Below are positions 16,417-50,000 of a stretch of DNA of 64,000 bases, one piece after another. The number at the start of each line of letters is the position of its first letter. Within the stretch, counting starts at the first letter, position 1. This stretch comes from a virus, in IMG/VR virus record IMGVR_UViG_3300028394_000001, positions 96,001-160,000 of that record. One strand, given 5' to 3'. Position numbers and translations under genes: made by a program. A model generated the notes under the pieces. That model was not told the origin of the DNA and ran no database searches. It worked only from the letters and a program-made list of their open reading frames with translations.

Positions 16417-17901
16417 ATGATTTTTGAAATTAATGCGGAGCGTAGTGCTTCAGACGTAAAGACTTTTTATTATGATAATGAAAAAAATATACTTTCAGAT
16501 TCTACTGGATTTGTTTATGAGTATCCGGAACCACAGATTCCACAACCCGTAACAGGTACAGGCTTGGAGTTATTCCATAAATGTGAAGAGGTTAAACCCT
16601 TTGATAAAAATACTCCACTAAAAAAATCAAAAGATGTTACTGTCATTAAAATCCAATTAGGTTTATCATGCAACTACTCTTGTGATTACTGCTCACAAAG
16701 GTTTGTTGAAAGGCCACCAGAAACTAGTAAAAAGGATATTGAATCTTTCATCTCTAAGTTGGATAATCTAAACATTACAGAAAAAGCTGGACTAAGAGTT
16801 GAATTTTGGGGTGGTGAACCACTTGTCTATTGGAAAACATTAAAACCTCTCGCTGAAACAATTGCTGAGAAATTTTCTCATTGGAAAAAGAAACCATCTT
16901 TTGGCATGGTGACTAATGGATCACTATTGACAAGAGAAATATGTTCTTGGTTATATTATATGGGTTTTGGTGTTGGTATTAGTCATGATGGTCCAGGTCA
17001 ACATGCTCGTGGTCCTGATCCATTTGAAGATCCAGAAAAAAAGAAAATCATCTTAGAGTTTTATAAAGTAATGCATTCCCAAAATCGTATTAGTTTTAAT
17101 TCTATGATGAATAGAAAGAATACTAGCCGCAAACAAATCCATGATTGGTTTGTTAATTTAACAGGTGATCCTACTGTTCCAATTGGTGAGGGTGGTTTTA
17201 TTGATGCATATGATGAAGCCGCTATCAATAGTTCATTAGAAACAAAACAAGAACATTTTGAATACCGAAGAAATGCATTTAATGATATTTATAGTACAGA
17301 TAATACAGATGAACAAATTAATTTTGGTATTATTAATGACAAAACAGACATGTTTGTTCGTGGTGTTTTGAATCACACTGAATCTAAATTTGTTGGTCAA
17401 AAATGCGGAATGGACAACGAAGGAACAATTTCTGTAGACCTCAAAGGTAACATCACAACTTGCCAAAATGTTTCTATAATGGAAACCAGTAAAAACGGTG
17501 AGTCACACTTAGGTGGTAACTTAGATGATTACGAAAATGTTGAACTGAAATCTGTTACTCATTGGATGAACCGAGCAGGTTGTAAGGATTGTCCTGTGTT
17601 GCATTTATGTAAAGGTTCTTGTATGTACCTTGACGGTAAATTTTGGGATATAACTTGCAATAATGCTTATAGTGATAATGTTGTTTTCTTTGCTTTAGCT
17701 CTGGAAAGAATTACAAATGGTTACATACCAACTAAAATTAAAGGTGATGGATTAGCTTTAGAAAGACAAGACATTTGGGGAACACTATATGAACACAAAG
17801 AAGTTGAAAAGAAAAAAATGATACCAATTAAAATTATAGCAGAAAAAATTGGTATGTTAAATGATGTTGAAATTTACGGACAATCAAGAGTAGAGGCATA
17901 A
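16417..17901 (+). CDS. radical SAM/SPASM peptide maturase
   Basis: CNYSCDYC (CX3CX2C), WGGEP, VTNG, SHDG; SPASM KCG...GNITTC...CKDCPVLHLCKGSC...C. Confidence 0.9.
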   Translation: MIFEINAERSASDVKTFYYDNEKNILSDSTGFVYEYPEPQIPQPVTGTGLELFHKCEEVKPFDKNTPLKKSKDVTVIKIQLGLSCNYSCDYCSQRFVERPPETSKKDIESFISKLDNLNITEKAGLRVEFWGGEPLVYWKTLKPLAETIAEKFSHWKKKPSFGMVTNGSLLTREICSWLYYMGFGVGISHDGPGQHARGPDPFEDPEKKKIILEFYKVMHSQNRISFNSMMNRKNTSRKQIHDWFVNLTGDPTVPIGEGGFIDAYDEAAINSSLETKQEHFEYRRNAFNDIYSTDNTDEQINFGIINDKTDMFVRGVLNHTESKFVGQKCGMDNEGTISVDLKGNITTCQNVSIMETSKNGESHLGGNLDDYENVELKSVTHWMNRAGCKDCPVLHLCKGSCMYLDGKFWDITCNNAYSDNVVFFALALERITNGYIPTKIKGDGLALERQDIWGTLYEHKEVEKKKMIPIKIIAEKIGMLNDVEIYGQSRVEA

Positions 17902-17902
17902 A

Positions 17903-18538
17903 ATGAAAGTTACAATCACACAAGAATTGCAGAATTGCATTAACCTTTTAAATTCTATTCCTGCTGTAAAATCAGTTGCAGTATCTGAAGCTTCAGACAT
18001 TATTAAATCACAAATTAAAAATGTAGACTCTTTCGTATTCAGTTTAACTAACGAGATGGGTAATACAATTAAATATATTATTCCTAAAAATGCGATTATT
18101 CGTGCAACAACTCATCCAGTGGAAGATTTTATGGATATTGTTAATGTTATAACACAAAGACTACAATTCTTAGATGAAAATACGAATCCAGATTGGATTG
18201 AACCTTGTTATTATAATAATATCGAAACAACTAGAGTTGAAGTGGTCAGAGAAGATATAGCACCAATTGCCGCAAATACTGAATTGCAATTATTAGTGAA
18301 TAGTTTGGAGGATCTACCTGGACTATTTAATGTTAATGTTTATTCATTAACATCAGGCAATGCCGATAGTGTATTTTTTACTTGTGATATTATTGAACAT
18401 CCTCGAGGTGGAAAAATTAATTTTGTGGTGCCTTTTAGTACATGCACAAATCTCGAAATGCATTCACAACTGATTGATAATGCAAATGAGTTATTCGAAC
18501 AAGCAAAAACAGGAAATACAACAACTAGTCAATCTTAA
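17903..18538 (+). CDS. orphan protein with an internal two-fold repeat
   Basis: ELQNCINLLNSIPAVKSV...KYIIP vs ELQLLVNSLEDLPGLFNV...NFVVP. Confidence 0.65.
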   Translation: MKVTITQELQNCINLLNSIPAVKSVAVSEASDIIKSQIKNVDSFVFSLTNEMGNTIKYIIPKNAIIRATTHPVEDFMDIVNVITQRLQFLDENTNPDWIEPCYYNNIETTRVEVVREDIAPIAANTELQLLVNSLEDLPGLFNVNVYSLTSGNADSVFFTCDIIEHPRGGKINFVVPFSTCTNLEMHSQLIDNANELFEQAKTGNTTTSQS

Positions 18539-18544
18539 AATATT

Positions 18545-19201
18545 ATGAGAATCGAGAATATTTTTGGTTATAACATAACAAGAATACAATGTACAAATGA
18601 ATCTCTCTATAGAGATAATGAAATAACCAAAACGGTTAACAATGTATTTAATTTTCCAAAAGTTCAAAGTAGAGATAGAACACTCAAGGGAGATTCTCAT
18701 AAAGGTGCAGGTCTAACCACGGTTAGTGAATCATACCTTTCTTTAGTAAATCTACCGGGTTTTGGTAATTTAACTGAATGGATTACACAGCAATTTTTAT
18801 TGGCAAAAGAACCTTTGGGGCTTGACAATAAAGGAAATATCGTGTATTATAAGAGAAGTTGGGCAAATAGGTTATTTCGTGGCGGCCATGGATTATGCCA
18901 TAATCACAATAAAGTGGATAACTATATTGCGAGTCTTACGGATTATACAAATGAAAATTTTAGACCAGATGCTGTTGGTATTTTTTATCTTGATGTGCCG
19001 GAAGCTTCATCAAATTTAGTCATAGTTAAAGATGGCAAACCTGAGACTTGGATTGATGATTATGTAGAAGAAGATACTCATTGGATACAACCAATAGAAG
19101 GAGAGTTATTAATACACTCTCCTGATGTATATCATGCTGTGAGTGTTCATCACAATAATTTACCTCGTAATGTTTTTGTTTTTGATATTGAATATGTTTA
19201 A
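18545..19201 (+). CDS. 2OG-Fe(II) oxygenase
   Basis: SWAN...HNH...GIFYL...EGELLIH...YHAV...R.VFVFD. Confidence 0.75.
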   Translation: MRIENIFGYNITRIQCTNESLYRDNEITKTVNNVFNFPKVQSRDRTLKGDSHKGAGLTTVSESYLSLVNLPGFGNLTEWITQQFLLAKEPLGLDNKGNIVYYKRSWANRLFRGGHGLCHNHNKVDNYIASLTDYTNENFRPDAVGIFYLDVPEASSNLVIVKDGKPETWIDDYVEEDTHWIQPIEGELLIHSPDVYHAVSVHHNNLPRNVFVFDIEYV

Positions 19202-19718
19202 AAAGAATCTTTTTGCAACACCAATTTGGCAAAGAATATTGCCAATTGAATTGAACAATGGATTATTAGAAGAATCTACTCAATTTGATGGTAATATATT
19301 TGATATGAACCTAACATATACAAATAAACTAAAAAACATTATTAGAGAATTATACATCAACATCAACTATGAATACATACTTGAAGAACGCACAATTCAT
19401 GGTAGACTGAATATAATAAATTATGGAGAAAATGATACACCACACAGTCACATAGGTAAATCACTTTTAGTTGGTGTCTATTATTTGGATGTTGAGATTG
19501 ATACGGGTGACCTTTTGTTACACGATCCCAGAGGTGGTGTTGTTTGGGATAATTTAGATTTTGAACCGAATGACCCTATAAAAGGAAAAACTTCCAGAAC
19601 TTATCATAGAATTAAACCTGTAAACGGATTATTAATTATGTTTCCTGGATATTTGGTACATTCAGTAGAAAACAATATGAATAAAAAACCAAGAAAGTCG
19701 ATAGTTATTAACATATGA
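19194..19718 (+). CDS. 2OG-Fe(II) oxygenase (TIGR02466-like)
   Basis: ATG at 19194; PHSH...GVYYL...DPRG...FPGYLVHSVENN...RKSI. Confidence 0.85.
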   Translation: MFKKNLFATPIWQRILPIELNNGLLEESTQFDGNIFDMNLTYTNKLKNIIRELYININYEYILEERTIHGRLNIINYGENDTPHSHIGKSLLVGVYYLDVEIDTGDLLLHDPRGGVVWDNLDFEPNDPIKGKTSRTYHRIKPVNGLLIMFPGYLVHSVENNMNKKPRKSIVINI

Positions 19719-21235
19719 AATATACAATATTGGGTGGCGGAAGTGCTGGTTGGTTAACTGCATTGTTCATTAGAAAAATTTGTCCAGATGATGAGGTAAC
19801 TGTCATTGCTAGCTCCGAAATTGGAATTTTAGGTGCAGGTGAAGGCACTACACCTCAATTTCCTATGTTTCTTAAAAAGATTGATATATCGGTTCATGAT
19901 ATAATTAAAAACGCTAAAGGAACATTTAAGAATGGAATTAAATTTACTAATTGGAATGGAGATGGTGAACATTACTATCATAACTTTCAAGATTCATTAG
20001 TAAATTTCGAAGATTACAAACACATTGATGTTAATCCCTATGCTTTAAATAACATTTCAAACCATGAAAATTTAGATAGCTTGAATTTTACTCCACTCAT
20101 ATCTGAAAAAAATAAAGTAAAATATATAAAATCTAATGATAAAGAATGTGGATCGGATGCGTTACATTTTGATGCAAATTTATTAGCCAAATATTTTCAA
20201 ACTGTTGGTTTAGAAAGAAATATTAAACTTGTTGATGATGAAGTTATTTCTGTTGATTCAAAGGACAATAAGATTGTTGGATTTAATTTAAAATCAAATA
20301 ATAAGATAGATACGGATTTTGTTTTTGATTGTTCTGGTTTTAAAAGATTTCTAATTGGTGGCCACTACAAAGGTAAATGGAATTCTTATAATGACCATTT
20401 ACCAATGAAACGAGCGATGCCTTTCTTTGTTCAGAACGACACTAAAGAGATTCCACCATACACAGAAAGTATTGCTATGAAGTATGGTTGGGTTTGGAAG
20501 ATTCCGGTACAAGGTCGATTTGGTTGTGGTTATGTGTTTGATTCGGATTTGGTGTCTGATGAAGAAATCAAAAAAGAGTTGGAGGAATATTTTGGACATG
20601 AAATTATAAGTCCAAGAACATTCACTTTTAATCCAGGTTGTTTTGAAGAGGTGTGTATAGGTAACTGTATTGCTATTGGTTTATCAGCCGCTTTTATTGA
20701 ACCACTTGAAGCGACAAGCATATGGGTTACCATTATGCAATTGACTGAATTTGAAGCGAATAAAAACAAAATCTTAAACGACTCTGGTGATTCTATTGAA
20801 TCATATAATCAAACTATTAAGGCAATAAACAGAGACATTTTAAACTTTATACAATTACACTATTTAACTAATCGTAATGATAGTGTTTTTTGGAATACTT
20901 TTAAAGTAAAAAACAAGGTATTACCGCAAATAGAAGGTCTTAAAGAATTGTGTCAAGATAAAATTCCAGAATCTCACAATTTAAAATACCTTACATTAAC
21001 AGAAAATATTAACATAGGTTGTTCGCGTAGTAACCATCGGGGTATTTTTTCCGAAACAAGTTGGCATCAAGTTGGTGCCGGCATAAAATTCTTTAAAGAA
21101 GATATTGCAAGAAAAGTTTTGGATACTGAATATCCAAATTTTAAAAATGAGGTTATATTTCAGGACTTTTTTGAAAAAAATAGTGAACTGTTATATGACC
21201 ATTACGATTACATAGAGAAATTAAAAAATGTTTAA
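19715..21235 (+). CDS. flavin-dependent tryptophan halogenase (PrnA/RebH family)
   Basis: GGGSAGW, GAGEGT, catalytic K in TFKNGIKF, GWVWKIP (WxWxIP), FIEPLEATS. Confidence 0.9.
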   Translation: MKYTILGGGSAGWLTALFIRKICPDDEVTVIASSEIGILGAGEGTTPQFPMFLKKIDISVHDIIKNAKGTFKNGIKFTNWNGDGEHYYHNFQDSLVNFEDYKHIDVNPYALNNISNHENLDSLNFTPLISEKNKVKYIKSNDKECGSDALHFDANLLAKYFQTVGLERNIKLVDDEVISVDSKDNKIVGFNLKSNNKIDTDFVFDCSGFKRFLIGGHYKGKWNSYNDHLPMKRAMPFFVQNDTKEIPPYTESIAMKYGWVWKIPVQGRFGCGYVFDSDLVSDEEIKKELEEYFGHEIISPRTFTFNPGCFEEVCIGNCIAIGLSAAFIEPLEATSIWVTIMQLTEFEANKNKILNDSGDSIESYNQTIKAINRDILNFIQLHYLTNRNDSVFWNTFKVKNKVLPQIEGLKELCQDKIPESHNLKYLTLTENINIGCSRSNHRGIFSETSWHQVGAGIKFFKEDIARKVLDTEYPNFKNEVIFQDFFEKNSELLYDHYDYIEKLKNV

Positions 21236-21893
21236 CTATTGCGCTGTACCTACACTAAAAGATATTAAGGCTGAGACTTTCCCAGATGGCCGATACTATG
21301 TAATGGAAGACGGTGCAAGATTGCCGTCAATTACGACTGTACTGGGTGCTTTAAGTAAGGCTGACATACTTGCATGGCGTAAGCGTGTTGGTTATGAAGA
21401 AGCCAATAAAATCTCACGCAAAGCATCTGGTCGTGGTACCAATATGCATAGCATCTGTGAAGCATATCTAAACAACAATATAGAGTATTCAAAGAAGGCT
21501 ATGCCTGATGCATTGGAAATGTTCAAGAGCCTCAAACCAATTATAGATGCAAATGTGTCTGATATTTGGTACCAAGAATGTGCATTGTTTTCCAAAAAAC
21601 TTGGTGTTGCAGGTCGTGTTGACTTGATTGCACATTGGGACGGAAAACTATCTATCATTGATTTCAAGACCAGTAGCAGGATTAAAACCAGAGATAAGGT
21701 TATGTCCTATTTTTGGCAAGAAACTGCATATGCATTGATGTTAGAAGAAATGATTGATATACCTGTTGACCAGATTGTTACCGTTATGGCAGTAGATGGT
21801 TCTGAACCATTGGTGTTCATTGAAAAGACTCAAGACCATATCGATGGACTAGTAAAAGCCATACAATTCTATAAAGATTCTTTGGTGGCTTGA
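21228..21893 (+). CDS. PD-(D/E)XK Cas4-like exonuclease of T4-like phages
   Basis: LPSITTVL, RGTNMH, AGRVDL, IIDFKTS, YFWQ..AYA. Confidence 0.85.
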   Translation: MFNYCAVPTLKDIKAETFPDGRYYVMEDGARLPSITTVLGALSKADILAWRKRVGYEEANKISRKASGRGTNMHSICEAYLNNNIEYSKKAMPDALEMFKSLKPIIDANVSDIWYQECALFSKKLGVAGRVDLIAHWDGKLSIIDFKTSSRIKTRDKVMSYFWQETAYALMLEEMIDIPVDQIVTVMAVDGSEPLVFIEKTQDHIDGLVKAIQFYKDSLVA

Positions 21894-21918
21894 CAAGTCT
21901 CTAATCCTGTGATACAAT
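21890..21918 (+). promoter_or_regulatory. sigma70 promoter for the RNA locus
   Basis: TTGACA-17-TGaTACAAT; +1 falls near 21925, at the first RNA stem. Confidence 0.8.
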
Positions 21919-22023: not shown

Positions 22024-22121
22024 AACACTATAGAAGATTAGATAATATCAAATCTCAGGGCTGGTACACCAGATTACTCTAGGGAAACCTAAAAGTGCAG
22101 ATAGACCGTATAGTGTTTTTT
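22024..22121 (+). ncRNA. unknown structured RNA 2
   Basis: Closing stem AACACTATA/TATAGTGTT; hairpins AGATT..AATCT, CTGG-taca-CCAG, TAGG-GAAA-CCTA; U-run after. Confidence 0.55.
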
Positions 22122-22440
22122 ATTGCTGTATGAAGCAAAGAGAAAAGTGTTCTGGACGGGGGTGCGAATCCCCCCAGGTCCACCATAAGGATTGTAATGA
22201 AAGAAAAAATATTAACTGCTATTGAAATGATTGCAGAGTTCCTAAAAGGAATAGCACAATCTTTATGATGGGCCTGCATAGTTTCGACAGGGCAAAGAGT
22301 AACAGAGTGGACAGCACGGTAGGCGATGACCGTTAATCAAGCAAAAAACGTAAATGCAAACGACTCCGCATATCGCCTAGCTGCTTAAGCTAAGCTGAGG
22401 TTTCGCCGACTGTCCTTATTATCCAATCAGTCGGCAATTT
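22122..22440 (+). ncRNA. ssrA: circularly permuted (two-piece) tmRNA
   Basis: Acceptor piece: T-arm GGGGG-TGCGAAT-CCCCC plus CAGGTCC-A-CCA ending 22185. Coding piece starts GGGCCTG at 22270 (G3:U70 pair), then TTTCGAC. Helix 2 CAGGGCA/TGTTCTG. Tag 22356-22388 = ANDSAYRLAA*. Outer ends approximate. Confidence 0.92.
22197..22268 (+). CDS. 23-aa amphipathic peptide in the tmRNA intervening segment (MKEKILTAIEMIAEFLKGIAQSL)
   Basis: SD AAGGA 22187-22191, ATG 22197, TGA ending 2 nt before the tmRNA 5' G. Confidence 0.5.
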   Translation: MKEKILTAIEMIAEFLKGIAQSL

Positions 22441-22461
22441 GTTCAACAAAAGGAGAAAATT

Positions 22462-22905
22462 TTGATTAAAAAACTCGTACTTATCGCATCCCTTATGGGT
22501 GTATTTGCAAGCGCACAGGCTTTAGAAGTTGGTATCAATGATGGTACTAATCTTAGCTCAACGCAAAATGTTTGGGGTGTTACAGTAGGTGAAACTGTGA
22601 AAGGTTATAACTTAACCGCAGGCTTCAATCGTTCTACAACTGCCGACTCTTATAGTTTGGTAAATGCTGTAGAGGTAGCAAAATTTGGACCTGTATCACT
22701 TGATGCTAAATTTGGTGCTGTCTTTGTTGACAGTCAATCAGGTTCAGCTTATGATGGTTATGCCGCTACGGTTGGTGTCGGTGCTCGTATGCCTATCACT
22801 AAATCAGTTTCAGCAGGCCTTGATTACAGTTACCAAGCTGGTCAAGACCGTGTTGTTGCAGAAAACGGTAGCCGTATCACTGCTGGCGTTAAATTTAGTT
22901 TCTAA
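22462..22905 (+). CDS. outer-membrane beta-barrel protein (OmpA/OmpX/Ail-like)
   Basis: SD AAGGAG plus TTG; signal peptide ending AQA; amphipathic strands; C-terminal AGVKFSF beta-signal. Confidence 0.8.
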   Translation: MIKKLVLIASLMGVFASAQALEVGINDGTNLSSTQNVWGVTVGETVKGYNLTAGFNRSTTADSYSLVNAVEVAKFGPVSLDAKFGAVFVDSQSGSAYDGYAATVGVGARMPITKSVSAGLDYSYQAGQDRVVAENGSRITAGVKFSF

Positions 22906-39835: not shown

Positions 39836-41910
39836 TGGCATCAAATACAAACATACAAATAGCTAATCTAGATTTTGCTGATATTAAGCAAAATTTCATT
39901 ACCTATTTGAAATCACAAGATACATTTAAAGACTACAACTTTACAGGTTCAGCTCTTTCCACACTAATGGACGTTCTTGCATATAATACACAGTACAACG
40001 CTTTCTATTTAAATATGGTTGCAAATGAAATGTTTTTAGATTCAGCCTTGCAGCGTTCTTCAGTTGTATCTCATGCAAAATTAATGAATTATGTTCCAAG
40101 GTCAGCGATTGGACCCATTGCAGAAATAAATGTTATTTTTAGTGGTGTAACAACTACAAACTTTACAATTCCAAAATATACAAACTTTCTTTCAGAACCA
40201 ATGGATGGTGTAAATTATAATTATGTAACAACCTCAGAAACGACAGTTGGTGTAATTGGTACTGTTGCAAAATTTCCACTTATTGAATTGAAACAAGGAA
40301 GTATTTCATCATATAGTTTCACTGTAAACTCAACAAACAATCCAAATTATACATACGAAATTCCAGATTCCAACATTGATTTATCCACAATTGAAGTATT
40401 AGTCCAACAGTCCAGTACAAATACCTATTATGATATTTACAATAGTCAAACCAGTTATTTGGAATTAGGTCCAACAGACAAAGTATATTTTGTTCAAGAA
40501 GCTGTAAATGGAAATTATCAGATTTATTTTGGTGATGGTGTTTTAGGAAATAAACTGTCTGATGGAAATATTATAAGTGTTACTTATCTGACAACATCGG
40601 GAACTGCTGGTGGATTAGCTAATAATTTCGTACTTATGGATAATATTGGTTCTTATTCCGCTTTAACCATAAATCCAATCATGGCGGCAACACAAGGTAC
40701 AGAAAAAGAATCAATTGCTTCTATTAAATTTCAAGCACCAAAGGCCTTTGCATCACAAGGTCGTGCAGTAAGTAAAAATGATTATATTACAGCAGTTCAA
40801 CAAAACTCCTTAGGTATTTCTTTTGATGCTGTTTCGGTTTGGGGCGGTCAGGAAAATAAACCGCCTGTTTATGGTCAAGTGTTTATTGCATTAAAACCAG
40901 CCGGTGCTTATGATTTGACAACAACACAAAAAGAATTAATCATGTCTCAGGTTCTCAAACCAATCAGTATGATGACGGTTGAACCTGTGATTGTAAATCC
41001 TGATTATACTTACATTCAAGTATCTGCAAATGTACTCTACAATTCAGCGCAAACCACTTTGTCTTCAGGTACAATGCAAACAGGAATACAAACTGCAATT
41101 TACAATTATGCATCTACAAAATTAAACACTTTCAATTCAACATTTAGTTCTTATGACGTTTTGAATACAATAAACTCATACAATAAATCTATTCTTTCTT
41201 CCGATTTCACTATTAAGGTTCAAAAGAAGTTTTATCCCACAATAGGTACTGCAACAACTTATAATCTTTATTTTAACAGTTCATTGAAACGAGGAATGTT
41301 TGGTAGTTCTTTGACCACTTATCCAGGAATAACAATTGTAAATCCTAGTAACATTACAACAAATTTAACAGGTATTTACTTTGAGGAAGTACCAACTCTA
41401 ACCGTTGGTGTAGATTCCATTTCAGTAATTAACACAGGTTATAATTATACCAAAACACCAACCGTTGTAATTAATGGTGACGGAACAGGTGCAACAGCTA
41501 CTGCCAAAATCGTCAACAACAAGTTATATTCTGTCACCGTAACAAATGCAGGCGTTGGTTATACAACTGCATTGGCCACAATTGTTCCCGCTACTGGAGA
41601 CGCAACAGGAACAGGAGCTGGTGTGGTTTTAAAACTACAAGGTCAATATGGTACAATTAGAAGTTACTATAATGATACAGTAAAAGGTAAGATTGTGGTT
41701 TCTGAAAATGCTGGTACAATTGATTATGAGAATGGAGTAATTTCTCTAGTGAATATGAATCCAGTAGCTATTGAAAATGATTTAGGACAATTAACTGTTT
41801 CAATTGAACCAACGACAACCATCATTTCTTCTTCGTTAAATAGAATAATTACAATTGATCCATACGACCCATCTGCGGTAACTATTTCTATTACAGCTAA
41901 GAGAAGTTAA
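39835..41910 (+). CDS. 6: baseplate wedge gp6
   Basis: LDF..IK..F..YL..Q..FKDYNF.GS...LAYNT.YN.FY.NM..NE.FLDSA..R.SVVS.AK. Confidence 0.95.
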   Translation: MASNTNIQIANLDFADIKQNFITYLKSQDTFKDYNFTGSALSTLMDVLAYNTQYNAFYLNMVANEMFLDSALQRSSVVSHAKLMNYVPRSAIGPIAEINVIFSGVTTTNFTIPKYTNFLSEPMDGVNYNYVTTSETTVGVIGTVAKFPLIELKQGSISSYSFTVNSTNNPNYTYEIPDSNIDLSTIEVLVQQSSTNTYYDIYNSQTSYLELGPTDKVYFVQEAVNGNYQIYFGDGVLGNKLSDGNIISVTYLTTSGTAGGLANNFVLMDNIGSYSALTINPIMAATQGTEKESIASIKFQAPKAFASQGRAVSKNDYITAVQQNSLGISFDAVSVWGGQENKPPVYGQVFIALKPAGAYDLTTTQKELIMSQVLKPISMMTVEPVIVNPDYTYIQVSANVLYNSAQTTLSSGTMQTGIQTAIYNYASTKLNTFNSTFSSYDVLNTINSYNKSILSSDFTIKVQKKFYPTIGTATTYNLYFNSSLKRGMFGSSLTTYPGITIVNPSNITTNLTGIYFEEVPTLTVGVDSISVINTGYNYTKTPTVVINGDGTGATATAKIVNNKLYSVTVTNAGVGYTTALATIVPATGDATGTGAGVVLKLQGQYGTIRSYYNDTVKGKIVVSENAGTIDYENGVISLVNMNPVAIENDLGQLTVSIEPTTTIISSSLNRIITIDPYDPSAVTISITAKRS

Positions 41911-41914
41911 TTAA

Positions 41915-44900
41915 ATGTTACAAAGTACCAATAAAACATCGTTACTGGTTCCCTTTCAGCTTCCTAAATTCATTAGTGAGGACCCAAACTACGCCAATTT
42001 TGTTCTATTCATACAGGCATACTATGAATGGTTAGAGGAACAAAATAACACATTAGATTTTTCCAAAAATTTACTCAATTACATGGATGTGGACACAACC
42101 ACAGAACAGTTTTTACAGTATTATGTGAATGATTTTATGTCATATTTCCCACAGGAAATATTGGCAGATAAAACAAAAGCAATCAAGATAGCAAAGGAAT
42201 TGTATCAAAGTAAAGGTACACCTGCATCCTATAAGTTTTTATTTAGGACACTTTACAATACTGATGTGGATTTTTTCTACACAAAAGACGCCGTTCTTAA
42301 AGCTTCCTCAGGTAAATGGTATGTTTCTAAAAGTTTGAAATTGGCGACCAGTGATAAAAACTTTTTATCCATTCAGAATCTTAGATTGTTTGGTCAAACC
42401 TCGAAATCTATAGGAACAGTTGAATCTGCAATATATGATGGTCTTAAAACTGAAGTATTCATTTCAAATATCGAAAGACTTTTCGAATCAGGTGAAAAAG
42501 TAATAGTTGTAAATTCTTCAAATCAGCCTGTATATTTCTTGAACGGTGAAATTGTACCGGCAGGAACAGCAGGATCCGAAACATTAACAGCACAGATTGT
42601 TGGCCAAATTAGTCAAGTTAAGATTGATCCAAAAAATAGGGGCCTTTCATATCAAACAAAAGACCCAGTTGTTGTTTATGGTGGATTAAATTCAAATGTA
42701 GCAAATCCTCTTGGAGCTACTGTTGAAGTTGGTTCAGTTACTTCAGGTTCCATACAAAGGGTTACTGTTATCACAGAAGGTTATGGTTACACAACCAGTG
42801 AAGCTAACACACAAGTGGGTGGATCAAATACCTATATCAATATAACAAATTTGGTAGGTACAAGTCCGCAAGCACCTATTATTGTTGTTGGTTCTCTAAA
42901 TCCTGTAGGTATTGCAAATGTGACATTTATACCTAAAGATAGTATTCAATTAAAACGATACCACTATCTAGGTAACATTGCAGGTAGCTCAGGTGCAAAT
43001 ACTTTTAATTCATCCACAGGACTTTGGACACAACAATCTTATCAGTTTGCTAATTTAGCTTTTTCAAATGCAAACACAACTTTAGTTAATGCATTTAGTT
43101 TTGGTAGTTTTTCTACATTTCCACTATCTTCTGTTATTGTTCAAAATCAAGGTGGTGGTATCACAGTTCCACCAGATATTCAAGCAATTTCAGAATATAC
43201 TACCGATGTATACTCTCAAACAACCCTATCAAACTTGGCAATTCTTGCACCAATTCAAATTATTAAACCGGGTTCAGGTTATTCTAATAATGACCAGATT
43301 GTATTTATTGGTGGTACCGGTTATGGTGCGTTTGCGAATGTAACTGTCAATGGTACAGGATCAATTATTTCTGTTGATTATGTAAGCAATTCAACAAACA
43401 AAATGACATTAGGTGGAATGGGTTATTTTAATTTACCTAAAGTTGTAGTTGGCCGAACAGGTGGTGGTAATGTGACCGTTTCGACCACAAGCAATGTAGT
43501 TACAGGAAACGGAACAAGCTTCACCACACAATTTAGTAATGGTGCTTTACTGGTGTCTAATACTAATATTATTATTGGAACAGTTCAATCTATTGTAAAT
43601 TCTAATTCAATGATATTGACTGCTAATTCTAATTATACGTTAAATGCAAATTCATACTATCTGGGAACAGCAATATTATCAGTTGATAGTATTTTAGGAA
43701 CAGGCGCAACATTTTCCCAAGTATTGAATCGTGTTGGTTCAATTACATCATTTAATATTATAGAAAACGGTGAAGATTATATTGGTGCACCTAAAGTATC
43801 TCTTAAAGTACAAGATTTAATTGTATCTAATGTTTCTCCTTCAATAATTCCTTCAATCGGTGACATTATTTACCAAGGTGCAAACACTAATACAGCAACA
43901 TATACAGCTTTAGTAGACTCTATTAATGTTTTGGAAAATTCCATTCCTGCAACCAATAGCATCTATCAGCTAAGAGTATATAATTATAATTCAATACCAC
44001 AAAAATCATTACCTTTGAAAATTGATTCAAAAGGCGCGTCAGTTAAATTAGTTGGAGGTTATACAAATAATTTTAATACAACTTTCGATAACTCAGTTGA
44101 TAACAAAAGATTTGATTCAGCTAACGGTGTTATTACTTACGGTGACGGTTTTGCAAAAGCGAATGCAACTTTCTTGTCAGGTTTAGTCATAGGAAACGGT
44201 CAATACTTAGACAAAACGGGCCAACCGAGTTCGTTTGATGTATTGCAAAGTGAAGATTATAATAACTATACCTATCAAATTACTTTATCAAAAGAGATAG
44301 AAAAATATCGTGATGTACTATTAAACCTATTACATCCATCTGGAACAAAAGTTCTTGGTCGAGTTGTTATGACTTCAAATAATAATATGGACTTTGAGAC
44401 AAAATATGCATTGGATACAGGATATACACTAGGTTATTATGCAGGAAATACTGCTACCGTAACAATTCCAGCTGGCACTTCAACGAGTACAAGTAACAAT
44501 ATTATCAAATTTAACAATTTGTATGGTGCAAATGTTTCAGATTTTATTACCGCAAATTCTACAGAATTAGTCTTCACATACGGAACAGAAGTTAATGATG
44601 TCTTTCATGGTTTAGTTGTTAAGGTAGATAATGCATCCAATACTGTAACAATGGAAGATAATGTTTGGACATATTTTGCTAATGTGGCTATCGGTTCATC
44701 AGCAAATGGTAATAACCAAGTCATAAATATACAGTCATTGACATGGAGTTATAACATTATCAACAATGGCCATTACAGCAACACCGCATATCCTGTAAAG
44801 GATATTATTCGTGTTGGAGATAAGATTACAGTTAATGGAGTGGCTCAAACAGTAACAGCATTTGGTTCACCTTTTACTTCAGCTACTCTAAGTGGTCCTC

Positions 44901-45067
44901 TGACAAGTGGTGCAAACGGTTACATTTCAGTGGGAAGAAGTATAACTTCATTATACAATCAAGTCCAAATTATTGGACCAGTGGGAACACAATATCTCTC
45001 GGAACTAGGAACAGAAAACGGTGATATATTAACTTCAGAAACAGGCGCATGGTTATTAATAGGATAA
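41915..45067 (+). CDS. 7: baseplate wedge initiator gp7-like
   Basis: Y.SKGT..SYKFLFR.LY; LQ...YN.Y.Y...LLHPSG; position after gp6. Confidence 0.8.
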   Translation: MLQSTNKTSLLVPFQLPKFISEDPNYANFVLFIQAYYEWLEEQNNTLDFSKNLLNYMDVDTTTEQFLQYYVNDFMSYFPQEILADKTKAIKIAKELYQSKGTPASYKFLFRTLYNTDVDFFYTKDAVLKASSGKWYVSKSLKLATSDKNFLSIQNLRLFGQTSKSIGTVESAIYDGLKTEVFISNIERLFESGEKVIVVNSSNQPVYFLNGEIVPAGTAGSETLTAQIVGQISQVKIDPKNRGLSYQTKDPVVVYGGLNSNVANPLGATVEVGSVTSGSIQRVTVITEGYGYTTSEANTQVGGSNTYINITNLVGTSPQAPIIVVGSLNPVGIANVTFIPKDSIQLKRYHYLGNIAGSSGANTFNSSTGLWTQQSYQFANLAFSNANTTLVNAFSFGSFSTFPLSSVIVQNQGGGITVPPDIQAISEYTTDVYSQTTLSNLAILAPIQIIKPGSGYSNNDQIVFIGGTGYGAFANVTVNGTGSIISVDYVSNSTNKMTLGGMGYFNLPKVVVGRTGGGNVTVSTTSNVVTGNGTSFTTQFSNGALLVSNTNIIIGTVQSIVNSNSMILTANSNYTLNANSYYLGTAILSVDSILGTGATFSQVLNRVGSITSFNIIENGEDYIGAPKVSLKVQDLIVSNVSPSIIPSIGDIIYQGANTNTATYTALVDSINVLENSIPATNSIYQLRVYNYNSIPQKSLPLKIDSKGASVKLVGGYTNNFNTTFDNSVDNKRFDSANGVITYGDGFAKANATFLSGLVIGNGQYLDKTGQPSSFDVLQSEDYNNYTYQITLSKEIEKYRDVLLNLLHPSGTKVLGRVVMTSNNNMDFETKYALDTGYTLGYYAGNTATVTIPAGTSTSTSNNIIKFNNLYGANVSDFITANSTELVFTYGTEVNDVFHGLVVKVDNASNTVTMEDNVWTYFANVAIGSSANGNNQVINIQSLTWSYNIINNGHYSNTAYPVKDIIRVGDKITVNGVAQTVTAFGSPFTSATLSGPLTSGANGYISVGRSITSLYNQVQIIGPVGTQYLSELGTENGDILTSETGAWLLIG

Positions 45068-45070
45068 AAA

Positions 45071-45601
45071 ATGTCAACAATTAAAATTTCAGAATTACCT
45101 AAATTCAATACAATCAATGCAAACACAGCAAACACTTTGTTTGTTGGTGTTGATATACCGTCTGCACAAACATTCCATTATACTGCTGGAACATTAGCAG
45201 CTGGTCTATTTGCGAATACTGAATTGGTTGTTGGTAACAGCAAGAACTTAACTATTACAGGCAATACATTTCCACAAAAAGGATTCATTTTTACACCTAG
45301 AATTTTACAAGGTGCTCAGACAGCTATCACAATCGATTTTGCAACAGATTCTGTGATCCGTGCTACTTTTGCAGCTACAGTAACAAATACATTATCAAAT
45401 TATGTTGCAGGTAAGGTTGTTGAAGTGTGGTTAACAAACACAGCAGGCAATACCCAAAGTTTGACACACGGTTGTTTGGCAAATAATTCAACAACAGGAA
45501 CAACTTCAACAAATGTCTCAGCTGGACACACTATCTATTTAAAATACTTTAGTATTGCTGGAGACCTTGCAAATACTTTTGTTTCTGTTGTAAAATCATA
45601 A
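45071..45601 (+). CDS. virion protein (short fibre/connector-like)
   Basis: MSTIKISELP N-terminal motif of fibre-type proteins. Confidence 0.6.
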   Translation: MSTIKISELPKFNTINANTANTLFVGVDIPSAQTFHYTAGTLAAGLFANTELVVGNSKNLTITGNTFPQKGFIFTPRILQGAQTAITIDFATDSVIRATFAATVTNTLSNYVAGKVVEVWLTNTAGNTQSLTHGCLANNSTTGTTSTNVSAGHTIYLKYFSIAGDLANTFVSVVKS

Positions 45602-45611
45602 TAAATAAATC

Positions 45612-47036
45612 ATGGCTACAAATAAAAACATTCTTACAAATCAAGCAAAAGTAATCAGAGTCAAGACGGATTATTATAATCCGTCCTTAGAACTTAATGG
45701 CGATTCAATTAATTCAACTTATATATTTCTTAGCCAAGAAGATACATGGCCAACAATATCTTCCGTAGAAACTCCGACACAACCACAAGAAGACCAATTA
45801 TCATTAAAGAAAATATTTAAGAATATGTTTGCGGTTAAATTGATAAATTCCAGCAATATTCATCCAGTAATCCAAAGAATCAATTGGAAAAATAACACGA
45901 ATTTTTTTGCCTATTCCGACACTGTGAATTTGAATGCAAAAGATGCAAATGGCTTTCCACTGTATAATTTTTATGTAAAAAATAGATATGACCAAGTATT
46001 TAAATGCTTAGCAAATAACAACGGTGGTTTGTCCACATCTGAACCATATTTTGAACCTGGTTCATATGGAACAAATAATATTTACCAAGGCAATGACTTA
46101 TACAAGTGGAAATATATTTATACCATTGATGCAGGCCTCAAGAAAACCTTCTTGGATACTGTTTGGATGCCTATTCCTGTCGGTGTAAACACACCACAAC
46201 CATACTTGACTGATGCAGGTGTTGGAGACATTCAGGTAATTAATGTAACAAATGGTGGTACAGGTTATGATGCAGTAAACACATTCATTGTTGTTTCCGT
46301 CACCGGAGATGGTACAGGATGTGTTGCTAATATAACCAGTTCTGAAATAACATCTGGTGTAATTAAAGATATTGTGGTAAAACCTGGTTTTTCAGGTAAA
46401 AACTACACTAACGCAAATGTCACAATAACTGCATATACTTCCGCAAATATGGTTGTGGTTTCTTCCTCAGGCACAGGAGCAACAGCAGTTGCACCAATTT
46501 CACCAGTAGGGGGACATGCATATGATCCAATATCTGAATTGGGATGTAACCATGTTATGTACGCAGCTGAATTTAACGGAACAGAAAATGGAATTTTACC
46601 TACAACTGGTGTAAACTATCATCAAGTTGGTATACTTGTCAATCCACAAACTTATGGAACATCAGGTCCTGTGTTAGCAAATGGCGCAATTTATAATACA
46701 ACTACACAATTTTTACTTTCTTCTGGTCAAGGAAATGTATATACATCCGGTGAGATTGTGCAACAAAAAGATGCAAATGGTAATGTAACTTACTATGGAA
46801 CAGTTTTAAATTTTAACACATCAAGTAATATTTTACAGTTGATAAATACAAGTGGAAATTATACTGTTGGCCAAACAATTCTTGGTGTAACCACAGGCGC
46901 TTCTAGGGTTGTTTTCAATGTAACTGAACCTTCTCTCATTCCATTCTCAGGATATATAACCTATGTTGATAATAGAGTTGGTGTTCAAAGAAGTAATGAT
47001 GGCATCGAACAATTTAAATTTGTACTAGGATACTAA
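45612..47036 (+). CDS. 8: baseplate wedge gp8
   Basis: R.NW, FYV.N...VFKCL.N, Y.WKY.YTI, GGH..DP..ELG, SG.I.Y.DNR. Confidence 0.88.
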   Translation: MATNKNILTNQAKVIRVKTDYYNPSLELNGDSINSTYIFLSQEDTWPTISSVETPTQPQEDQLSLKKIFKNMFAVKLINSSNIHPVIQRINWKNNTNFFAYSDTVNLNAKDANGFPLYNFYVKNRYDQVFKCLANNNGGLSTSEPYFEPGSYGTNNIYQGNDLYKWKYIYTIDAGLKKTFLDTVWMPIPVGVNTPQPYLTDAGVGDIQVINVTNGGTGYDAVNTFIVVSVTGDGTGCVANITSSEITSGVIKDIVVKPGFSGKNYTNANVTITAYTSANMVVVSSSGTGATAVAPISPVGGHAYDPISELGCNHVMYAAEFNGTENGILPTTGVNYHQVGILVNPQTYGTSGPVLANGAIYNTTTQFLLSSGQGNVYTSGEIVQQKDANGNVTYYGTVLNFNTSSNILQLINTSGNYTVGQTILGVTTGASRVVFNVTEPSLIPFSGYITYVDNRVGVQRSNDGIEQFKFVLGY

Positions 47037-47045
47037 AGGAAAAAA

Positions 47046-50000
47046 ATGTCTTTAAATTTCAATGTTAGCCCATATTTTGACGATTTTGATCCATCAAAAA
47101 ACTTTCACCGTATACTTTTCAAACCAGGTTCTGCGGTCCAAGCTCGTGAATTAACGCAATCTCAAACCATTCTGCAAAATCAAATTTCAAATTTTGCATC
47201 ATCGATCTTTTCCACAAATACTCCAGTTTCTGGTGGCCAAGTAACGGTTAACCAAAATTGTTATTTTATTAAATTGAATAACACATATAATGGAATAACT
47301 GTTGTTGCAGAAAATTTTGCAGGTCAATTAATTCAAGATGCAAGTGGAACAATTCTCGCTAGAGTTTTAGCCACATCCGAGTCAACAGCCAGTGGTTCCG
47401 TTGCTGGTGATCCTCCAACATTAATCATATCATATCTGTCGGGTGCTAAATTTACAGATGAAGTTGTTCTTACAACAGCAAGTGGTCCAACATATTTCGC
47501 TTCTGTTATAACATCTACAACAACAAATATATCAACAGGATCATCTTCTGTTGCCTCAATTTCTAGTGGTGTTTTCTATGTAGTTAATGGTTATTCCGTT
47601 TCAGACACCACAGGTATTAAATATTCAATTGGTAATTTTGTTCAAGTTGATCCACAAACAATCATACTAAACAAATATGATAATACACCATCTTATAGAA
47701 TTGGTCTGCAAATTACAGAAACAATTTATGATTATATAAATGATTCTTCTCTATTAGATCCGGCGGTTGGTGCTTCAAATTATCAAGCGCCAGGTGCAGA
47801 CCGTTATGTTATTACCTTAACACTCGTAACACTGCCATTAACACTAGGTAATGATGACAATTTTATTGAATTGGTTCGTATTGAAAATGGTAAAATCTCA
47901 AAACAAGTTGATGGTACAGTATATTCAACCATCGATGATTACTTTGCAAAACGTGATTATGAAACAAACGGTGATTATATCGTTAATGATTTTAAACTGA
48001 CACCATCAGCAAACTCAATATCACCAACGGAATATGATTTAAACATTAGTAAAGGTGTTGCATATGTTCACGGTTATAGAGTTGAGAGCCAATCTGATAT
48101 TAAATTAACAAACGACAGAGCTCAATCTGTTGCAAATATTAGTAATAATCCCGTCTTTATTGATTATGGAAATTATTTTGTTGTCGATACTGCAAATGGC
48201 GTTTTCGACATTTCAACAATGCCGCAAGTTGATTTGCATTGTGTTCCTGCAGCTAACGTCATTTCGACCAATACCAAAACTTATTCAGCCACTTTGGCGG
48301 GTACAGCTTTTATTCGCAATCTAAAATACGCTTCAGGAACTGGAACAAATACAAAATCTTATGTTTACAATGCATATATTTCAGATTTTTCCGCAAACAA
48401 ATTAACCGGAAATGTTACTTCAGGTACCACAAATACATTTACCATTACAGATACAACTGGTTCTTTTTCACCTGTTGCAAATGCATATTATGATATGACC
48501 GTCAGTATGAATACAGGTGGTCTAATTGATGTTAGAAATATTGTTAGTTATAATGGTTCCACCAAAACAGCAACTGTTGATTATCCGTTTACAGTTTCAC
48601 CTACAGCAAGTTCAATATTTTCATTAATATTCAGAGGCACTGATGTTGAGTCTATTATTAAAACCGCAGGTTCAGGTTCATATGCAACAACTGCAAATGT
48701 TAATATTAACTCCACCAGTGGAAAAGTTAACGGCCTTGCAAATTCTCAAACAATATTATTCTCTCAAGTATCACCTGAAGTAATATATCAAATTGGATAT
48801 CCTTATGTTGCTCAGTTGATTACAACATCATATTACACACAAAGAGTATACCGATCAAAAACATTTACTGGTACAACATTAACGCTACAATCTACTTCCG
48901 GAAATGCAAGCAATCCATTAAAATTTACAGGTTCTGGAACCTTAGACAGTTCATCAGCTCAACAACTGTTCATGGTTATTGATAATTCAACAGGAAGTGT
49001 TATGGATTTTACCACATCAGGTAATACAATTTCCATTTCAGGCGATAAAACCACAGCAACCTTCACTGTTGGATCAGGCGTTGGAACAAATAAAAATGTT
49101 ACAATTATCGCACAAGTTCAAGTGAGTAGTGGTGATTCTTCGAGTTATGTTTTAAAATCTAAGAGTTTAGTTACAGGAAATACCACAATTGTTGGTACAC
49201 TCGCATCAATTGCGGGTACAAATTCTTATCAGGACTTAACAAAAGGTCAAATTACAATTAAAAATTCAGATGTTACCACAACTGGAAAAATATCTTTATA
49301 TGTAAATGACGTTAAGAAAATTACAAAAGTTTTTGATTCGGGTGTAGCAGGAACAAACCCAACTGGTTCATTGTCAAATTACACAGATGTTACTTCCTAC
49401 TATAAATTAGACAACGGCCAAAGAGACAATTTTTATGACCATGCATCTGTATCATTAATTCCAGGTGCACCTCGCCCAGTAGGCAACATCTTAGTTGTTG
49501 TGGACTACTATTCACATAGTCAAGCTTCATCTGGTGATGGTTACTTTAGCATTCAATCATACAATACTTCAGGATCAACATACGGTGGCGTATCGAGTTC
49601 AGCTGAAGCTTATGCACAAATTGGAACATACACAGCTAATGACGGTGTTAAATATACATTAGGTGATTGTATTGATTTCAGGCCTTGCCGTGTAAATAGC
49701 CAGACTGCCTATATTTGGGAATATTCAGGATCTCAAACTTCCAGTAATGATATTGGTATGTTAATACCGAATAATTTATCAAATTTTTCAGGATTCTATC
49801 AATATTATTTGGCTAGAAAAGATAAATTGGTATTAACAAAAGATAAGAGTTTCAATATTATTCAAGGAACACCTTCTGTCAATCCTTCTTTTCCAAATCA
49901 ACCTGCCGGTTCTCTAGTAATAGCAAATCTCTCACATGACGCTTATACAGCTTTTGTTCCAGGTGAAGGTACTCCAGGTACAATTTCTAACCTATCTATT

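Follow-up and report, generated by a model that had tools for sequence, protein, structure and literature searches.

The locus lies in a window of 64,000 nucleotides (the whole stretch of DNA that we analysed) from a phage genome of 170,520 bases, near T4-like replication genes (exonuclease, helicase loader, single-strand binding protein). At about positions 22124-22445 ARAGORN and two covariance models, both scoring above the gathering score (RF04321, 133.9 bits; RF01850, 101.4 bits), detected a complete permuted tmRNA of the Betaproteobacteria type, in which the acceptor piece precedes the coding piece. The acceptor stem carries the G3-U70 pair, CCA is encoded and the tag ends in LAA; judged from its sequence, the RNA belongs to the permuted tmRNA family on every feature that could be checked. 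The precursor is likely to start at a sigma-70-type promoter, whose function is predicted from its fit to the consensus. The promoter, an upstream element and the two pieces of the gene are as follows.

21890-21918, plus strand: sigma-70-type promoter, 11 of 12 consensus positions, extended -10.
22045-22115, plus strand: structured non-coding element upstream of the tmRNA, with no match in Rfam.
22124-22185, plus strand: acceptor piece of the permuted tmRNA, with T-arm, acceptor 3' strand (22175-22181), discriminator and CCA.
22270-22445, plus strand: coding piece of the tmRNA, with 5' acceptor strand (22270-22276), tag frame (22356-22388) and 3' hairpin.

Straight after the tmRNA, positions 22462-22905 encode a 147-aa secreted, beta-barrel-like protein with weak matches to YfaZ/DUF5777 (E 0.05), and a cell-wall hydrolase is next; a search for a terminator between the tmRNA and the 22462-22905 gene found none. 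Positions 16417-21235 hold a likely auxiliary enzyme cluster, assigned by motifs only, with a radical-SAM-type enzyme, two probable 2OG-Fe(II) oxygenases and a probable flavin-dependent halogenase. Outside the window, 27 tRNA genes form an array (41384-49035 of G000:C1), the spacers of which hold more tRNA-like or stem-closed elements and some ORFs, one of them continuing through tRNA-Trp. Close relatives were sampled from lake and river. One river metatranscriptome contig covers the tmRNA spacer with allele A8V and, being an assembled contig, attests to the sequence only and not to transcription, strand or processing; other RNA runs had no coverage of the spacer, which is accounted for by relatives carrying different spacers.

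The two pieces of the tmRNA are separated by an intervening segment (IVS) between the CCA end at 22185 and the mature 5' G at 22270. The initial annotation described this spacer as almost exactly filled by a Shine-Dalgarno (SD) sequence, an ATG, 23 codons and a TGA, with ends that pair into a processing-proximal stem burying the SD. All of these features are present.

22186-22269, plus strand: intervening segment of 84 nt between CCA and mature 5' G, an exchangeable gene cassette.
22187-22191, plus strand: Shine-Dalgarno sequence AAGGA, 5 nt ahead of the ATG.
22197-22268, plus strand: ORF of 23 codons and stop (ATG at 22197, TGA at 22266-22268), encoding a predicted amphipathic helical peptide of net charge 0.
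22184-22195, plus strand: 5' arm of the closing stem, including the CA of CCA and the SD, placed by folding and comparison.
22256-22267, plus strand: 3' arm of the closing stem (anti-SD), overlapping the last codons and the stop, placed by folding and comparison.
22238-22252, plus strand: internal 6-bp hairpin at the core of a longer, in-register one, which the homologue from phage BUCT-ZZ01 forms in full (see below).

A single U separates the TGA from 22270, and no in-frame start was found upstream of the ATG at 22197. The closing stem comprises 12 bp with one G-U; two of its pairs use the CA of CCA, leaving 10 bp in the excised piece. This fold is both the minimum free energy (MFE) and the centroid structure (z -3.1 to -3.8), and opening the SD would cost 6.5 kcal/mol in the excised spacer and 11.7 kcal/mol in the precursor, values that, like all folding energies given here, are predictions. 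On the evidence of this copy alone the ORF is not convincing. A frame stays open across the spacer in 17% of shuffles (p 0.17), the terminal TGA is part of a TGAT present in 169 of 184 distinct spacers, and AAGGA is one base away from AAGCA, the commonest start of non-coding stems. No second copy of the cassette was found elsewhere in the same genome. The doubt that the ORF arose by chance is removed by comparative data, from a family of cassettes and from the BUCT-ZZ01 homologue.

Nine distinct tmRNA genes carry this 84-nt spacer; the spacers are 96-100% identical, and the backbones that hold them 66-100% alike. The changes within this family amount to five synonymous codons and one conservative replacement (A8V). 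Counting codons 2-21 only, since the search patterns fixed the spacer ends, six of the seven segregating sites that make up the within-slot evidence for selection on this cassette are synonymous, against 20% expected (p 4e-4; 0.012 with transitions only). A tblastn search detected a homologue in the cultured phage BUCT-ZZ01 (ON615601:116482-116553; 65% identity, E 0.02), unannotated, with a Met start at the same position and a stop one codon later. Its neighbour on the 5' side, whose CCA it adjoins directly, is a tRNA-like gene with a CAA anticodon that scores below the Rfam cut-off; tRNA-Leu lies on its 3' side, and the permuted tmRNA of the same phage is about 300 bases away. The homologue has neither an SD nor a closing stem. 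The window ORF and the homologue differ at 12 third, 7 first and 2 second codon positions, and the replacements are mostly hydrophobic-for-hydrophobic. The comparison gives pS 0.78 and pN 0.20 (Fisher p 1.7e-4) and is our strongest test of selection, made with one distant homologue, part of whose divergence may predate entry into the slot. The two remaining frames of this pair showed no such coding signal. The selection check proposed for the spacer ORF thus came out in its favour both within the family and against BUCT-ZZ01, and these substitution patterns indicate that the ORF is a genuine gene under protein-level purifying selection.

Degenerate codon scans of viral contigs returned only the same four cassette copies and two chance matches inside longer proteins. 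The SD-ATG pattern, searched with one T-arm pattern in 185,579 prokaryote genomes, returned only six standard tmRNA 3' ends and one contig of a metagenome-assembled genome (MAG), whose cargo is of phage type and which is probably misbinned. A contig in a Bifidobacterium MAG (L314:3955-4002, minus strand) has a permuted tmRNA with a phage-type membrane-peptide spacer and is probably a misbinned phage contig. One tmRNA carrying the same spacer as the window (L199:6280-6470) has an unusually long tag frame of 29 residues ending in LAV. BUCT-ZZ01 itself has a permuted tmRNA of the Betaproteobacteria type, missing from its annotation, and a tRNA whose anticodon is CTA (amber) (L318:653-728, 1763-2163); its recorded host is Synechococcus elongatus, a label that may deserve a check.

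In a sample anchored on the neighbouring exonuclease gene, and drawn regardless of spacer content, an SD-led ORF is present in only 5 of 28 distinct spacers, from three lineages; the rest resemble structured RNAs, and one is about 4 nt long. The ORF, whose conservation in homologous spacers was suggested earlier as a check, is thus absent from most of them. At L034:4210-4213 a permuted tmRNA has a spacer of only about 4 nt and a CCA that is not clearly encoded. Once a spacer has an SD and an ATG, the frame is open to the 3' arm in 83 of 87 cases, compared with 8.5 expected and a maximum of 18 in 500 shuffles. In a scan that did not require an ATG, such an ORF is found in 11 of 16 spacers starting with AAGGAT and in 1 of 66 starting with AAGCAT (p 3.5e-9), and two more use GTG. 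By BLAST, the coding spacers fall into 54 unrelated ORF families of 10-124 aa, which share the same SD-hiding stem. Their cargo includes a CxxCxxCC protein, a PGDYG protein and a thioredoxin, the complete 84-aa gene of which fills the tmRNA spacer at L135:209-476, minus strand (Pfam E 4e-21); membrane-type peptides account for 19 of 53 cargo families. Pooling 14 other cargo pairs gave pS 0.27 and pN 0.06 (pN/pS about 0.22), and pN exceeded pS with more than one change in 2 of the 14 (L003/L004 and L029/L068). The closing stem is common to coding and non-coding spacers and is conserved, and the stem pair at the SD position covaries (C-G 70, G-C 43, G-U 32, of 147). Two spacers with an SD-like start and no ATG (L215, L247) encode a four-cysteine domain, whose reading frame probably opens further upstream and passes through the acceptor piece of the tmRNA.

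An unrelated coding spacer of 174 nt sits in a backbone 99% identical to the one in the window, and a non-coding spacer in one 97% identical; identical or near-identical spacers, in contrast, are held by backbones only 66-92% like it, and the spacer of the window recurs in ones of 66-67%. These comparisons of sequences show that tmRNA backbones exchange the cassette as a whole and that the gene is also present in an inter-tRNA spacer. Because unlike backbones share spacers and like ones differ, exchange must presumably occur close to the spacer edges, where homologies are only short. The non-coding element at 22045-22115 matches the content of the tmRNA spacer of another phage (L028; 89% identity over 64 nt), which suggests that non-coding cargo also moves in and out of the slot. 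Several cargo genes are found outside the slot as well, near a tmRNA gene, with different C-termini and often without an SD. A different end outside the slot was seen for three cargo genes besides the window peptide, and the BUCT-ZZ01 homologue has other final residues as well. Probably, then, SD, final codons and stop are provided by the slot itself. On these sequence comparisons the spacer is a swappable slot and not a conserved partner of the tmRNA. An SD-led ORF with an HNH-like motif, starting straight after a tmRNA CCA (L178, minus strand), was noted as a possible driver of spacer exchange.

The helix of the encoded peptide is predicted, not solved. Its hydrophobic moment of 0.47 exceeds that of shuffled sequences (p 0.003-0.004) and falls in the top 0.8% of 23-mers from the long ORFs of the genome; for the window peptide and the BUCT-ZZ01 homologue together the values are 0.47-0.49 (p about 0.002-0.003). 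The moment bears out the hydrophobic face assigned earlier, with an adjusted membership: L6 sits at its margin, and M1, A8 and F15 are part of it too. The best 17-residue Kyte-Doolittle mean is 1.2, below the transmembrane level. No family match was found in Pfam or PHROGs, and PDB returned only non-significant designed coiled coils. We favour binding of the peptide to a membrane surface over docking to a protein: the inner membrane surface of the host is its most likely target, by what we judge a little better than an even chance, and docking on a host or phage protein as an amphipathic helix is a real possibility, of about one chance in three.

In type I toxin mRNAs the SD is hidden by long-range 5'-3' pairing. 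From the shape of the peptide one could read it as a PSM-like or type I toxin-like membrane-damaging product and the stem as its safety catch. Its length of 23-24 aa, an amphipathicity kept at 65% identity through hydrophobic-for-hydrophobic changes, the long-range pairing over its SD and the share of membrane-type peptides among the cargo families fit such a reading. The likeness that the initial annotation drew to PSM/delta-toxin and type I toxins is in this physicochemical sense sound, but it extends neither to family, as the databases returned no match, nor to transmembrane hydrophobicity. A search of the locus for an antitoxin RNA detected only a minus-strand promoter-like site of 9/12, at chance level, and no terminator. 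Soluble cargo, thioredoxin included, has its SD hidden by this stem too, and the BUCT-ZZ01 homologue has no such stem. We regard a lytic toxin, one sub-case of the roles considered above, as unlikely, at perhaps one chance in five.

Our preferred reading is that the spacer is a swappable cargo slot and that the window copy is a translated passenger gene, giving a short burst of peptide before the stem closes; we consider this probable. The gene would ride the strong early promoter of a stable-RNA transcript, and ribosomes would load before the 3' arm is made, while about 60 nt are transcribed. When successively longer transcripts were folded, the predicted cost of opening the region from SD to AUG was at most 2.4 kcal/mol as far as 22260 and 8-13 kcal/mol thereafter; with a cost that stays low up to 22260, ribosomes could load over this stretch of about 60 nt. 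Formation of the 3' arm and the acceptor stem would then lock the SD and stop translation, and RNase P (at 22270) and 3' processing at CCA would excise the spacer. RNase P cleavage and 3' maturation at CCA are established for two-piece tmRNA generally (PMC11915505). Each transcript would thus yield a short burst of peptide and then mature, and the kinetic off-switch would be a consequence of the slot architecture and not a dedicated feedback circuit.

Judged from geometry and standard footprint sizes, a ribosome at the start of the ORF would sit on the 3' strand of the acceptor stem, and one at the stop on its 5' strand. Because of this overlap with the acceptor strands, a translated molecule could not be processed at that moment, and mutual exclusion of translation and the folded precursor, per molecule, is plausible. 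The earlier proposal that translation and tmRNA maturation are exclusive or coupled keeps its force to this extent, for a single molecule at a given moment; that tmRNA and this peptide are specially matched is not supported, as most homologous spacers lack such an ORF and 54 unrelated families use the stem. Activation of the SD by 3' trimming was rejected, as 8-10 nt would have to be removed and the stop codon would be deleted. A conserved two-state RNA switch likewise found no support: the alternative hairpin is 8 kcal/mol weaker than the closed form and fails the shuffle control.

Of the 87 spacer ORFs, 23 find their stop only within the coding piece of the tmRNA, 20 of them in a single frame; ORFs that run into the coding piece are seen, for example, in L082, L086, L094 and L098. 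These 23 stop beyond the RNase P cleavage, so their excised mRNAs would be stopless and could be tagged by tmRNA, for which arfA provides a precedent as a non-stop mRNA tagged by tmRNA. One could extend such observations to an evolved, coupled expression platform, in which SD and anti-SD would meter a membrane-active peptide and dozens of other cargoes, ribosomes would delay maturation, and cargo with a stop beyond the cleavage would be self-tagged. We hold this combined view to be unlikely, at somewhat less than one chance in six.

Slightly less probable still, at around one chance in eight, is dedicated regulatory coupling, in which translating the spacer ORF controls how fast the tmRNA matures, or maturation controls how much peptide is made, as a feedback on the capacity for ribosome rescue. 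It would make use of the overlap of ribosomes at start and stop with both acceptor strands and of an SD-open fold that employs the same 3' arm (-8.9 vs -16.6 kcal/mol) and is 75% paired in register, compared with 31-49% when slid; by analogy with arfA, the 23 ORFs that excision would turn into non-stop mRNAs could also serve it. The alternative hairpin, though, fails against the shuffle control (51/500), some alleles weaken it, and the stop of the window ORF stays within the excised piece. Most spacers are non-coding and one is about 4 nt, so maturation needs no ORF; the cargo is swapped freely; and the peptide sequence is selected, which control of a pure leader type would not need.

An equally improbable reading is that of a captured silent gene, once selected in its former inter-tRNA place and now hitch-hiking with its SD locked, as argued for Coxiella S23p (PMC4990558). 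The predicted opening cost of the SD in the finished RNA (6.5-11.7 kcal/mol) and the Coxiella precedent are consistent with it, and the very low divergence among in-slot copies would fit a recent spread. The in-slot changes are, however, 6:1 synonymous, and the other in-slot pairs show the same constraint. The SD is present in the slot and absent from the out-of-slot homologue, and across the slot an SD-type stem predicts an intact ORF. Finally, that the spacer is a structured small RNA and its coding signal a by-product of hairpin conservation is very improbable and largely refuted: the BUCT-ZZ01 homologue does fold as a 24-bp hairpin (z -3.8) and one compensatory double change explains two amino-acid replacements, but the differences are codon-periodic, and remain so in codons 2-7, which lie beyond the hairpin; the window copy has lost most of the long hairpin and kept the helix pattern, and the start and stop positions are conserved.

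Intervening segments of tmRNA are usually treated as disposable; under the preferred reading of a translated passenger in an exchangeable slot, a segment regarded as waste from a stable RNA probably has a second role as a messenger. Genes so small and so nested escape annotation, as did the BUCT-ZZ01 homologue. If the spacers are translated, the precursor of a stable RNA in aquatic T4-like phages conceals a store of accessory genes that is rapidly exchanged and comes with its own translational off-switch, and competition between ribosome loading and RNase P-type processing becomes testable on one short RNA. Particular to the window locus are its amphipathic cargo, the inter-tRNA homologue in a cultured phage and the contrast between a copy with an SD and one without. 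The cultured-phage homologue offers an experimental handle and shows a likely route between inter-tRNA and tmRNA spacers, with no direction implied.

The tRNA clusters of T4-like phages have small ORFs between tRNA genes (T4 tRNA.2-tRNA.4, ipI region). These are alike to the spacer gene in being small genes on a stable-RNA transcript, released by tRNA processing, and the BUCT-ZZ01 homologue is such a gene. The gene in the window differs in its position, flanked by the halves of a single RNA which have to pair with each other over it, and in having its SD and stop built into the closing stem. PSM-alpha and delta-toxin (hld in RNAIII), TisB, Hok and AapA combine a short amphipathic helix, a transcript with a second RNA function and an SD hidden by long-range pairing, and the window gene resembles them in all three respects. 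In the window the ORF is cut away from the functional RNA and is not part of it; there is no sequence match, no antitoxin was found at the locus and the peptide is not transmembrane-hydrophobic. Its 23 aa fall within the 20-26 aa of PSM-type amphipathic helices, but it has no PSM homology and sits in a phage genome instead of a staphylococcal context; with type I toxins it shares SD sequestration, a feature common to non-toxin cargo, and lacks their transmembrane helix. Nor does the RNA belong with dual-function RNAs of the RNAIII or SgrS type, since the ORF lies wholly outside the mature tmRNA pieces: the dual function proposed in the initial annotation can apply to the precursor, but not to the mature tmRNA.

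With the known permuted tmRNA of the Betaproteobacteria type the gene shares its order of pieces, the G3-U70 acceptor stem, CCA, the LAA tag end and an aquatic T4-like phage carrier; it differs in that the IVS carries an SD-led, selected protein gene exchanged as a cassette. Phage-borne two-piece tmRNAs are known, for example in the OM43 phage Melnitz (PMC9004378; PMC11915505). In the passages searched, PMC11915505 names a tRNA gene and a repetitive element as the sole contents of IVSs, and no ORFs, and PMC9004378 does not discuss the IVS content of the Melnitz tmRNA. We found no description of protein-coding tmRNA spacers in the literature, although older key papers on two-piece tmRNA may mention them. 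The nearest analogue is the ORF in the IVS of 23S rRNA (S23p; Coxiella, Leptospira; PMC4990558), likewise a protein ORF in a stem-closed segment excised from a stable-RNA precursor. Those segments lie in 23S rRNA, are removed by RNase III and encode one protein family, whereas the slot described here lies in tmRNA, is expected to undergo tRNA-type processing and has at least 54. The terminal complementary arms are shared; the 23S rRNA location and the S23p family are absent, the window peptide having 23 aa and no Pfam match, so that the spacer element resembles an S23p IVS in layout and is not a member. In Coxiella excision deprives the IVS ORF of its SD, and the ORF is decaying and probably goes untranslated in vivo (PMC4990558), whereas in the tmRNA slot the SD is kept in the spacer and the ORF is under selection.
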